Assembly: GCF_900079115.1 (NCBI RefSeq)
Contig: NZ_LT549890.1
Coordinates: 1,200,001 to 1,232,000, forward strand
Direction: 5' to 3'
From: Saccharolobus solfataricus
GTDB lineage: Archaea > Thermoproteota > Thermoprotei_A > Sulfolobales > Sulfolobaceae
DNA: 32,000 nucleotides
A model generated the notes under the pieces. The model worked only from the letters and a program-made list of their open reading frames with translations. It searched no databases and was not told where the DNA came from. Made by a program: the position numbers and the translations under genes. This document shows, piece by piece, positions 5,489-10,272 of this stretch (position 1 is its first letter; every line of letters begins with the position of its first letter).

Positions 5489-6232
5489 GTGAAGATTAGG
5501 GTTGATATTATAGGTTTAAAAGGTGGTGTCGGGAAGACAACAATAGCGTTGAATACTGCATTATATCTTTCCAAGAGATATAAGGTTTTATATATTGATA
5601 AGGATCTGCTTTCAATGGGGTCTTTAATTTTAGGATTTAATGGCCTTGGTTTTAATAAAGCAATAGTAGAAGGTTTAGGCAATGAACAATATGAGTATAA
5701 GGTTAATAATAACTTAACGTTATTCAAGTTATATAGTGATCCAGTAAACGAGAGAGAGTTACAGCATAAGGTTAAAGGCATGGGTGAAAAAGCTGAAAGA
5801 GCCTACGTTGATGTTGTATCGAAGGGCTATGATGTTATCATAGTAGATTACGGTAGGATTTTCAGAACTAATGATCCATTAGTGTATGACGAATATGAAA
5901 TGTTTAAGAAAAATTTCCCTGACTATACGATAGCTGCAGCAGGAATTACTGACGCCATTAGAAATGATGTTACAGATGTTGTAAAATATTTTCTAGATAC
6001 AATAAATAGAATTAAAGCCAAACCCCTCGCTTTCGTAATTAACATGGTACCTCAAATAGGTGATATTCAGAAAGAAATTAATCAAATAGTTAGAGAAATT
6101 AGTGAAGTTGTAAAATGTGATATACTTACTATTCCCTTTAACGAGAAGTTAGTACAATATGCCAATATGGGAGAAGTAGAAGAAATGCAAAAAGTGGGAA
6201 AGTTAATAGAGCGAATTTTATCTAATGGGTAA
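5489..6232 (+). CDS. Orphan ParA/MinD-family (SIMIBI class) P-loop ATPase
   Basis: 247 aa. Deviant Walker A GLKGGVGKTT with the signature lysine, and Walker B-like VIIVDYG. No ParB-like or small DNA-binding ORF is adjacent. Confidence 0.8.
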   Translation: MKIRVDIIGLKGGVGKTTIALNTALYLSKRYKVLYIDKDLLSMGSLILGFNGLGFNKAIVEGLGNEQYEYKVNNNLTLFKLYSDPVNERELQHKVKGMGEKAERAYVDVVSKGYDVIIVDYGRIFRTNDPLVYDEYEMFKKNFPDYTIAAAGITDAIRNDVTDVVKYFLDTINRIKAKPLAFVINMVPQIGDIQKEINQIVREISEVVKCDILTIPFNEKLVQYANMGEVEEMQKVGKLIERILSNG

Positions 6233-6458
6233 TAGATCTTTTTAAGCTAGTTTACAAGTTTTTTACAAGAGAACGTCTATCCTTTTGATGCTGAATACTC
6301 TAAGCATAAGTGGTTTTTTCCAAATATTTACTTATACAATACATAAAAGTTGCATAAAAACTATTTTAGTTAAACTATCCGCATCCTCTACTAGAAAACG
6401 TTCATCGGGATATAAGAAAAAAATTGTTTATATGTATTTTAAAAAAAAAGAACATACT

Positions 6459-8547: not shown

Positions 8548-9003
8548 CTACTCCTCAAAATCCTTCAATATCCATCCTTGATATCCATGAATTTCTAGTT
8601 CTTTACAAGCTGAGACAGATTTCGCTTCACCTATAGTAATGGAAACATTAGGGATAGTCTTATTTTCACACAGATTCACTACTCCATTGAGATCGAGCTG
8701 CGAAATATCATTAATTAGAAGGATGATTTTCACATCCTTTCTTCTTAGTTCCTTTATCTTTTTAATATTCTCTATATGAAAATTAAGGTATGTTAGAGTT
8801 GATTCTTCGTAAATAAATATCAATCTTATTTCTCTCTCTAGATCCAAGTAAAACGGAATTTTAATTCCGTTAATTTCCACATTTTTCCTTGCACTAATCA
8901 CTATCTGATCTAATTTTTTAACCATTTCCATTAAATAATCATTAATTAAATCATCTTCTATTAACTCATTTTTTGAAACTAAGATTTTATCCATTTTTCC
9001 CAC
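8548..9003 (-). CDS. Hypothetical soluble protein, middle gene of the glycosyltransferase operon. The likely start is ATG 8994.
   Basis: About 148-151 aa with no hydrophobic segment. The upstream gene's stop TAG (9006-9004) is immediately followed by GTG. ATG 8994 is preceded by GGTGG at a 6-nt spacing. No family recognised. Confidence 0.6.
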   Translation of the reverse strand: MGKMDKILVSKNELIEDDLINDYLMEMVKKLDQIVISARKNVEINGIKIPFYLDLEREIRLIFIYEESTLTYLNFHIENIKKIKELRRKDVKIILLINDISQLDLNGVVNLCENKTIPNVSITIGEAKSVSACKELEIHGYQGWILKDFEE

Positions 9004-10272
9004 CTAACCCAAATAGCTACTTCCCCTCCATTCGGAAACACCGTAATGGGTGATTGCTGCATATATAAACATGGGGAATATTACGAATAAACCGAGAATG
9101 CCTAGTGTAATAAGATCAACGAAGGATATTTTATCTGGGAGTTTAAGGTTCAAGATTCCAAAAGATATTTTCATACTTAAGTAAAGACCAAAAATAAAGA
9201 TAAGGAGCGAATATAATATTATAGGTATGTTAAATCCATAATAGGCTAAATAACTCCAAGTCAATGCAGTGGGATTTCCAGGAACTAAGAGCGTGTCTAT
9301 TAATGCCAAAGCAAATGAAAATGGAGCTAATAGATATGTTAACATATGAAATCTATATTTTCCGGGCATTTTGAAAAATAAGCCACTCCTCATTTCCTTA
9401 ATTAGGTAAAGATAACCGCTTCTAGCCCATCTTAACTGCTGGTTGAGGAATTTTAAAAACGTAGGTTGGGCCGCTGATTTAGCCACTGCCGTAGCTTGAT
9501 AGACTGTCTTATAACCATTCATATTTGCGTAATAAGTCAGTGCTTTATCGTCTGCAGCAATTAGTTTTCTCTTTCCGTAAGTCTCGTGATTGAAATGCCT
9601 TATAGTCTCTAGTAGATAACTTCTTCTGTAAGCGGCAATCTTTCCATCAATCACATTTAACGTTCCATTTAACGCTCTAACAACAATATCCCTACTATAC
9701 TCTATTATTTGTCCAAACAAATAGGGAATTCTGCCATCAGTTCTGAATAATACTGGTCTCCCTTGAACTCCAGCTACCTTAGGGTCCGCAAACGGTTTAA
9801 CGATTTCATTAATAGTATTATCTTCCATAATCGTATCACTATCTAACTGAACTATTATATCTCCAATTGCGTTTAACCAACCTATGATTAATGCACCGCG
9901 TTTACCAACCCTTCTACTAAGGCTTATAACCTTAGCACCATACTTTTTGGATATATCCACTACTTCCTTTCTCTTATCATCGTGGACTACTATTATCTCA
10001 TCTGGTTTATTTTTTGCAACTGATCTAAGACATTTTTCAAAAATCTCAAGATTCTCACCGTACTCTGGAACTATTGCACTTACTTTTACCTTATCTCTAC
10101 TTAAACCACTGATATAAGGTTTATAGCTTTTAGAGAAATGGCGCAATAAAAACTGTCTAAACAAGAAGAATATTGCAAAATTCACTGGAAAATATATGAA
10201 GACACCGTATTCAAGCATATACAGCACGTTTTCTAATTCGTATAGCATAATCTCTAATGTTATCAATGCCAA
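9004..10272 (-). CDS. Membrane-integrated processive family-2 glycosyltransferase (hyaluronan synthase/NodC/chitin synthase-like)
   Basis: 422 aa. Motifs VQLDSDT (DxD), [19 protein letters not shown] (compare GDDRxLT of HAS/NodC) and [11 protein letters not shown] (QxxRW). There is an N-terminal TM segment and several C-terminal TM segments. The annotated start is TTG; ATG at 10248 with TTTATAA about 30 nt upstream is an alternative. Confidence 0.85.

Follow-up and report, generated by a model that had tools for sequence, protein, structure and literature searches.

A hyaluronan synthase/NodC-type glycosyltransferase and its two conserved gene neighbours as a probable surface-glycan module of Sulfolobales

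Described glycan synthases and the SSO1299 locus

Class I hyaluronan synthases (HAS), such as CvHAS from a Chlorella virus, Xenopus HAS1 and streptococcal HasA, consist of an N-terminal pair of transmembrane (TM) helices, a GT-A domain, interface helices and a C-terminal TM bundle. They carry a common set of motifs, namely GKR, DxD, a GDD-type catalytic base, QxxRW and a C-terminal W-x-T-R. Other systems associate a family-2 glycosyltransferase (GT2) with dedicated partners. BcsA is encoded with BcsB, a large extracytoplasmic protein held by a single C-terminal helix, and the PgaCD and IcaAD systems combine a GT2 synthase with a small, tightly coupled membrane protein. Here we describe a locus of Saccharolobus solfataricus located in a stretch of 32,000 nucleotides (contig NZ_LT549890.1, positions 1,200,001 to 1,232,000), hereafter the window, to which all coordinates refer unless another locus is named. 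Three adjacent genes, SSO1299, SSO1298 and SSO1297, encode a GT2, a small soluble protein and a large membrane glycoprotein, and this trio is kept across Sulfolobales. It probably constitutes a Sulfolobales-specific synthase-dependent surface-glycan module, to which the ParA-like ATPase encoded next to it does not belong. The trio comprises the following genes:

9004–10272, minus strand: SSO1299, HAS/NodC/chitin-synthase-type family-2 glycosyltransferase; maximal open reading frame (ORF) of 422 aa from a TTG codon; AAK41536, RefSeq WP_014511643
8548–9003, minus strand: SSO1298, small cytoplasmic partner; 151 aa from GTG 9003 or 148 aa from ATG 8994
6459–8537, minus strand: SSO1297, 692-aa type-I membrane glycoprotein starting at ATG 8537

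A glycosyltransferase of the HAS/NodC type

The initial annotation of this locus, made from the sequence alone, had assigned SSO1299 to the HAS/NodC-type synthases. Sequence motifs, profile matches and the structural model all agree with this assignment. The protein displays the class I HAS architecture, with a pair of TM helices at the N-terminus followed by a GT-A domain (approximately residues 64–267), an interface helix carrying QQLRW and three to four C-terminal TM helices. Conservation of its motifs (D144-S-D146, A239ADDKALT246 and Q278QLRWARS285) was judged over 23 homologues, from which the search profile was also built. The residues K124R125, S145-D146, D241D242, Q278QxRW282 and R284 are invariant in these homologues, and D144 (at least 90%) and the C-terminal W415 are nearly so. 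D144-S-D146 provides the DxD motif of a GT-A domain, and the Pfam matches of SSO1299 are to generic GT2 families alone (E 1e-23 to 1e-12). A-A-D241-D242-K-A-L-T aligns with GDDRRLT of CvHAS, placing the catalytic base, and Q278-Q-L-R-W282 sits in helix 272–296 of the model. At the C-terminus, the family consensus W-L-T-R aligns with W455GTR458 of CvHAS; SSO1299 and its closest relatives have W415-R-G at this position. No PilZ match was found in SSO1299, whose chain stops about 15 residues past the last TM helix.

Searches against the NCBIfam collection did not place SSO1299 in any named family. The best match was NodC (TIGR04242; 92 bits versus an equivalog cut-off of 550), followed by PgaC_IcaA (69.7 bits versus 422), and CelA scored 17 bits versus 699. 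Against the sequences of the PDB, the single SSO1299 sequence retrieved CvHAS at E 7.6e-17. With the 23-homologue profile, this match reached E 3e-36 over profile positions 86–412, including the membrane region up to the C-terminal end, and Xenopus HAS1 was matched at E 7e-24. The AlphaFold2 model of SSO1299 is of good quality (pLDDT 87.8, pTM 0.86). When it was compared with the PDB using Foldseek, the top 13 matches were HAS structures, with alignments spanning the entire chain (TM-score 0.51–0.70, E down to 6e-18). They were followed by PcManGT, BcsA (TM-score about 0.6) and fungal and oomycete chitin synthases. Its similarity to HAS exceeds that to BcsA. The full-length alignment with CvHAS and XlHAS1 is consistent with a membrane-channel architecture.

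An enzyme of this superfamily encoded next to a protein with 34 N-x-S/T sequons could alternatively be a non-processive GT2 that charges dolichol phosphate, comparable to dolichol-phosphate-mannose (DPM) or DPG synthases or to AglJ and AglD, and that serves N-glycosylation of its neighbour. The N-terminal half of the GT-A domain indeed matches DPM synthase, GtrB-like and ArnC-like proteins (E 1e-11 to 1e-7). However, the DPM synthase match (1.7e-11) covers the N-terminal Rossmann half only, about the first 100 residues of the GT-A domain. The other non-processive GT2s are likewise confined to this part, their matches ending at about profile position 150–160. Dolichol-phosphate-sugar synthases have neither the QxxRW motif nor the GDD-type base, WxTR end and C-terminal TM bundle that characterise HAS, chitin synthases and NodC. 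Moreover, a high sequon density is general among Sulfolobales surface proteins. Hardly any credence can thus be given to this alternative, and SSO1299 does not group with the dolichol-phosphate sugar transferases, a grouping that had been named beforehand as fatal to the proposal. From its sequence and predicted fold, SSO1299 is a class-I HAS/NodC/chitin-synthase-type GT2 and not a dolichol-phosphate-sugar transferase.

The likeness to class I HAS is nevertheless distant. Identity is around 20%, the W-R-G end differs from WGTR, Sulfolobales have no adjacent UDP-glucose dehydrogenase (UGDH) gene, and the two conserved accessory genes are foreign to HAS systems. The enzyme type itself is already known. 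Databases name SSO1299 'NodC-like' (AAK41536) or 'N-acetylglucosaminyltransferase', and the annotation as NodC-like or 'hyaluronan synthase' dates from the genome publication. As a whole, the trio probably represents glycan synthesis of the synthase-dependent type with lineage-specific accessory proteins.

Conservation of the trio in Sulfolobales

Loci were gathered from exact-protein look-ups, a species-representative genome scan and a metagenome scan. Exact copies of the GT2 protein are present in S. solfataricus P2 (AE006641, at about 1.127 Mb) and in sister strains. The trio was found in every Sulfolobales locus with enough flanking contig, in about nine lineages and down to about 50% identity of the glycosyltransferase. 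Besides S. solfataricus and S. shibatae, these loci belong to an Acidianus-like metagenome-assembled genome (MAG; L006), Sulfolobus sp. UBA167 (L007, L015), a Sulfolobaceae MAG (L009), Sulfurisphaera javensis (L052), Sulfodiicoccus acidiphilus (L053), the Stygiolobus group (L055, L059, L133) and a further lineage (L057, L058, L134). No homologue from S. acidocaldarius or S. islandicus was among the named homologues found.

When all ORFs of 11 Sulfolobales loci were clustered, exactly three families occurred in at least 10 loci: the glycosyltransferase (11/11), the small protein (11/11) and the big protein (10/11). In the locus without the big gene, the contig stops 260 nt upstream of the glycosyltransferase gene, where part of a divergent gene, encoding an N-terminal TM fragment, can still be seen. 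L133 and L134 are two further cases beyond the clustered set. Two gene orders were observed, either the glycosyltransferase, small and big genes following each other in one direction, or the big gene divergent from a glycosyltransferase–small gene pair. The small gene adjoins the glycosyltransferase gene in all 11 clustered loci; it lies directly downstream except in Sulfodiicoccus acidiphilus, where it is upstream, and the gap is 0–9 nt in most loci. The loss of synteny in relatives, which would have spoken against a functional unit, was thus not observed. In a neighbour-joining tree, the trio-linked glycosyltransferases form one clade nested among other archaeal glycosyltransferases. A search of IMG/VR with the glycosyltransferase profile retrieved only giant-virus GT2s at about 25% identity, and no archaeal virus carrying the module.

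In S. solfataricus, the packing of the three minus-strand genes noticed at first reading is borne out at both junctions (0–9 nt and 10 nt). The TAG stop codon of SSO1299 (9004–9006) directly abuts GTG 9003, with 0 nt between them. ATG 8994, the RefSeq start for the 148-aa product of SSO1298, lies 9 nt further downstream and follows a GGTGG motif. The stop codon of SSO1298 (8548–8550) is separated by 10 nt from ATG 8537 of SSO1297, which is preceded by AGGTGA. Both Shine-Dalgarno-like motifs are therefore present as previously noted, and two further signals were read from the sequence:

10277–10283, minus strand: TTTATAA, TATA-box-like, about 30 nt upstream of ATG 10248
6418–6458, minus strand: T9 and T7 tracts directly 3' of the SSO1297 stop codon

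Together, Shine-Dalgarno-like motifs at both internal starts, a TATA-like box upstream and T-tracts downstream are operon-like signals. The true start of SSO1299 is probably ATG 10248, giving a protein of 414 aa, since this is the start used in RefSeq WP_014511643 and in nearly all homologues, and since TTTATAA lies about 30 nt upstream, so that TTG 10272 would fall within that promoter. By analogy with known Sulfolobus promoter architecture, TTTATAA would be a candidate operon promoter yielding a leaderless or near-leaderless transcript, and the T-tracts would close the operon in the manner of an archaeal terminator. Neither an Rfam scan nor a tRNA scan of the window gave any match.

The two accessory proteins

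SSO1298 has no TM segment, nor has any other member of the small family. Its first description as a soluble protein of about 150 aa of no recognisable family holds, as searches of Pfam, NCBIfam, PADLOC and PHROG assigned it to none. An N-terminal zinc ribbon of the form CxxC-x10-11-CxxC is present in 9/11 members of the small family, and judging from the alignment it is ancestral and was lost in the lineage comprising Saccharolobus and the Acidianus-like MAG. The small-family profile matched only zinc ribbons among PDB sequences, e.g. L40e and ArnA. A word-indexed homologue search with SSO1298 returned five close homologues. A defence-system or viral origin of the partners was also considered and rejected, as PADLOC and PHROGs gave nothing meaningful for either protein.

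SSO1297 has one N-terminal hydrophobic segment (residues 1–25, signal peptide) and one C-terminal segment (residues 657–690). It is composed of the signal peptide, a family-specific ectodomain, two immunoglobulin (Ig)-like modules of the CARDB/NEW3 type, a G-I-P motif leading into the TM helix and a basic tail. The signal peptide, the 34 sequons, the duplicated 111-aa module and the single C-terminal TM helix had all been recognised in the initial annotation and were all recovered here. The number of sequons is far above that of 2000 shuffled sequences (13.1 +/- 3.1, maximum 23). The tandem modules span residues 424–534 and 535–645, with 90/111 identical positions, and correspond to one feature on the DNA:

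6603–7268, minus strand: tandem 333-nt duplication within SSO1297 (module 1, 6936–7268; module 2, 6603–6935)

The first two thirds of the 333-nt copies are 98% identical at the DNA level and the last third about 83%, which points either to an older duplication modified by partial gene conversion or to allelic recombination. The duplication varies between strains, as a 581-aa form without it occurs in other S. solfataricus strains and in S. shibatae. Members of the big family measure 550–690 aa and keep the signal peptide, 19–34 sequons and the G-[IF]-P-TM-basic tail down to about 20% identity. This family is very narrow and fast-evolving: SSO1297 had 11 relatives at E <= 1e-3 among 1.84 billion representative proteins. 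The four weakest of them match residues ~445–623 only and are CARDB/NPCBM_assoc (NEW3) Ig-repeat proteins, which identifies the duplicated module as an Ig-like domain of this type. The small+big fusion alignment search gave at least three close relatives among the matches listed, the rest being low-complexity word matches. Pfam had no match for any of nine big-family members and the big-family profile had none among PDB sequences.

Clues to the product

The motifs and the gene neighbourhoods of relatives offer several clues to the polymer, although neither of the neighbourhood clues occurs within the window. The WGTR and GDD-R/K-x-LT motifs are typical of HAS, NodC and chitin synthases, which use N-acetylglucosamine (GlcNAc). 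Outside Sulfolobales, archaeal relatives from Nitrososphaeria, Bathyarchaeia and other archaeal MAGs encode glycosyltransferases that are 33–49% identical, and the small and big genes are absent from these loci. In eight of them, a gene for a UDP-glucose/GDP-mannose-dehydrogenase-like protein of 250–297 aa ends exactly at the start of the glycosyltransferase gene (L010 7216–7998, L011 4086–4979, L012 7034–7882, L056 7251–8000; also L060, L061, L063 and L064). These truncated UGDH-like proteins retain the N-terminal and central domains, with GxGxxG and the GKCLPKD cysteine motif, and have no C-terminal UDP-binding domain. By analogy with hasA-hasB, where hasB lies by hasA, or with cps3S-cps3D, this arrangement suggests a uronic-acid polymer in the sister clade.

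Within Sulfolobales, two lineages have a glycoside hydrolase family 12 (GH12) gene in contact with the big gene. Intact copies, with a 4-nt overlap between the two genes, occur in L134 (3488–4498, minus strand) and L057 (514–1521, minus strand), and a frameshifted, convergent one in L052 of Sulfurisphaera javensis (5069–6009, plus strand). These genes encode proteins with an N-terminal TM segment and about 10 sequons. GH12 enzymes are endo-beta-1,4-glucanases, and their position is analogous to that of BcsZ in cellulose systems, a hint of a beta-glucan-like product.

Short products have to be weighed against long ones. SSO1299 could resemble NodC in making short chito-oligosaccharide-like, cell-associated chains that act as primer, glycolipid head group or signal, no high-molecular-weight polymer being exported; of the neighbours, one would then be a surface protein that is modified or decorated and the other an unrelated small protein. 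The lead of NodC (92 bits) over PgaC (70 bits) among NCBIfam matches fits this proposal. So does size: NodC measures about 400–430 aa and streptococcal HAS about 417 aa, a range into which the 414–422 aa of SSO1299 fall. We also take DGKIAAYRR and ADDKALT of SSO1299 to resemble GPCAMYRR and GEDRHLT of NodC, compared here unaligned. In addition, the passage of PMC9549778 that cites Nicolaus 1993 lists glucose, mannose, glucosamine (GlcN) and galactose as the sugars of S. solfataricus exopolysaccharide (EPS), with GlcN as a minor one. Nevertheless, the NodC score is far under the equivalog cut-off of 550, and the full-length likeness to channel-forming HAS takes in the C-terminal TM bundle. That the synthase gene is strictly linked to the gene of an extracytoplasmic membrane protein speaks for export of the product. 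This linkage also sets SSO1299 apart from NodC, as does the absence of nodA, nodB and nodIJ-type neighbours from the gene lists examined. A product limited to short chains is therefore unlikely in our view.

The ParA neighbour and the comparison with Bcs systems

The trio faces a gene transcribed in the opposite direction:

5489–6232, plus strand: ParA/MinD-superfamily ATPase (AAK41532), convergent neighbour of the trio

The encoded protein begins MKIRVDIIGLKGGVGKTT and its gene converges on the end of the operon, with 226 nt between them. It has no adjacent ParB-like gene, and the first description of an orphan, convergent ParA/MinD is accurate. Membership in the superfamily is clear from the deviant Walker A motif LKGGVGKTT and from matches to Pfam CbiA (9.5e-10), Pfam AAA_31 (7e-8) and a ParA-like PHROG (2.8e-10). 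A known Sulfolobus plasmid partition gene was considered as a source and rejected, the comparison with PLSDB giving distant Lactococcus P-loop matches only.

This neighbour had led to the proposal of a full Bcs-like machine, with the GT2 as BcsA, SSO1297 as BcsB and the ParA-like protein as a BcsQ that would place or assemble the synthase. Its deviant Walker A motif KGGVGKT agrees with such a role, its gene lies next to the trio and converges on it in every S. solfataricus strain read as well as in S. shibatae (87% identity), and the GH12 gene beside the big gene recalls BcsZ. The BcsQ models, however, score below their cut-offs: Pfam CBP_BcsQ reaches 16.5 bits versus 21.3, covering little beyond the P-loop region, and NCBIfam BcsQ (TIGR03371) 19 versus 158. 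Adjacency to the trio is restricted to these two species, and no ParA gene was found within about 7–8 kb of the trio in ten other Sulfolobales loci (L007, L009, L015, L052, L053, L055, L057, L059, L133 and L134). In S. shibatae, an IS605-type gene even parts the ParA gene from the trio. As no ParA homologue occurs in the flanks of the other Sulfolobales trios, it is a lineage-specific neighbour and not a component of the module. Nor can it be assigned to the trio on the basis of position, because the same XdhC_C and amino-acid permease genes follow on its other side in both S. solfataricus and S. shibatae.

The glycosyltransferase moreover has no PilZ domain and the partners no BcsB or PilZ homology. 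The Bcs-like machine with ParA is thus largely refuted by synteny and has become very unlikely. Of the proposed BcsA/BcsB/BcsQ logic, the synthase type stands, the likeness to BcsB is one of topology by analogy and the BcsQ part falls. A BcsC-like component was not seen in the trio loci and is not needed, because archaea have no outer membrane. The comparison with PgaCD and IcaAD is similar: the logic of a GT2 synthase with a small, tightly coupled partner is shared, but PgaD and IcaD reside in the membrane and SSO1298 lacks any TM segment. No PgaB/IcaB deacetylase was seen in the loci examined and the partners show no PgaD homology. By analogy, the trio resembles BcsA-BcsB or IcaA-IcaD in logic, but it does not belong to either system.

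Other elements were observed around the locus. Three genes beyond the ParA gene, past an insertion sequence (IS) remnant, XdhC_C and the amino-acid permease, lies a second GT2 gene (52–951, plus strand; 299 aa from the first start codon in the ORF list of the window). The same gene in the P2 locus (L002 18773–19747) encodes a 324-aa Glycos_transf_2 protein. Two directly oriented, decayed IS-like copies (3944–5036 and 10730–11677) flank the four-gene block of the trio and the ParA gene; they are 77–91% identical, with fragmented ORFs and pieces of Pfam DUF4322. A composite transposon was rejected, as S. shibatae has no such copies yet keeps the order trio–ParA–XdhC_C–permease; for the same reason, the copies look like later insertions. 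In several Sulfolobales loci, small winged-helix HTH_45 genes recur at a distance of a few kb from the trio (L052 4372–4683; L053 9464–9757 and 14314–14933; L134 13207–13524). The ORF clustering did not bring them out as a conserved family, and they could be local regulators or a coincidence.

Proposed function of the trio

A Sulfolobales-specific synthase-dependent surface-glycan module, without ParA, remains the probable function of SSO1299-SSO1298-SSO1297. The cytosolic GT-A domain of SSO1299 would add sugars from UDP-sugars onto a beta-linked chain, and the chain would be threaded outward via a channel built from the enzyme's own TM and interface helices, as its HAS-like sequence and model suggest. 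SSO1298 would be a translationally coupled, stoichiometric cytosolic subunit that most likely binds the synthase from the cytosolic side and stabilises or regulates it; coupling, conservation and invariant adjacency point to such a partner or regulator. SSO1297, predicted to be heavily N-glycosylated, would expose its ectodomain between the membrane and the S-layer. Its GIP-TM-basic anchor would most likely pack beside the synthase, where the protein may take up the nascent polymer, guide it or tether it. Such a role is suggested by topology, the conserved anchor and the invariant linkage, and we infer that it would be BcsB-like by analogy, without BcsB homology.

Several observations weigh against this interpretation. 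Class I HAS and NodC act without accessory subunits, so that a requirement for partners is not predicted by homology. NodC-like enzymes yield short oligomers only, and a long exported polymer is consequently not guaranteed. The clues to the polymer conflict, the motifs pointing to GlcNAc, the UGDH-like gene to uronic acid and the GH12 gene to a beta-1,4-glucan. Sequence searches with SSO1297 found no BcsB, carbohydrate-binding module (CBM), CBD or other carbohydrate-binding or enzyme homology. The AlphaFold2 model of SSO1298, built with its five close homologues, is poor (pLDDT 50). Its Foldseek matches are insignificant (E >= 0.015, TM-score <= 0.31) and give no hint of a glycan role, being mostly PD-(D/E)xK nucleases (cap-snatching endonucleases, R.BspD6I, EcoO109I, Can2 and MUS81). 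The element order of this low-confidence model, alpha-beta-beta-beta(-beta)-alpha-beta, fits that fold; no conserved (D/E)xK was found in the small-family alignment, and the nuclease likeness is a lead only. Finally, a literature search found no paper on SSO1299, SSO1298, SSO1297 or the conserved trio.

A more specific and rather doubtful extension of the surface-glycan module is that the three proteins form an obligate complex. In this complex, a HAS/chitin-synthase-like enzyme would be gated by the cytosolic zinc-ribbon protein, and the glycoprotein would pass the nascent chain over the pseudo-periplasm as far as the S-layer or through it.

Significance for Sulfolobales surface biology

The synthesis and export of matrix or capsule polysaccharides are poorly understood in archaea, and the trio is a concrete three-gene candidate. 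The EPS composition of Sulfolobales has been measured (PMC9549778); a literature search found no paper on a synthase-dependent EPS route in this order. The trio could account for part of the surface glycan that is specific to strains and species of Saccharolobus, Sulfurisphaera, Stygiolobus, Sulfodiicoccus and their relatives. The absence of S. acidocaldarius and S. islandicus from the named homologues found may explain why it has been neglected, and would make these species clean heterologous hosts. SSO1299 itself, coming from a hyperthermoacidophile and predicted to be processive, would offer biochemistry a thermostable glycan synthase. Should the obligate complex prove true, it would be the first archaeal HAS/chitin-type exopolymer system and a new way across the S-layer envelope.

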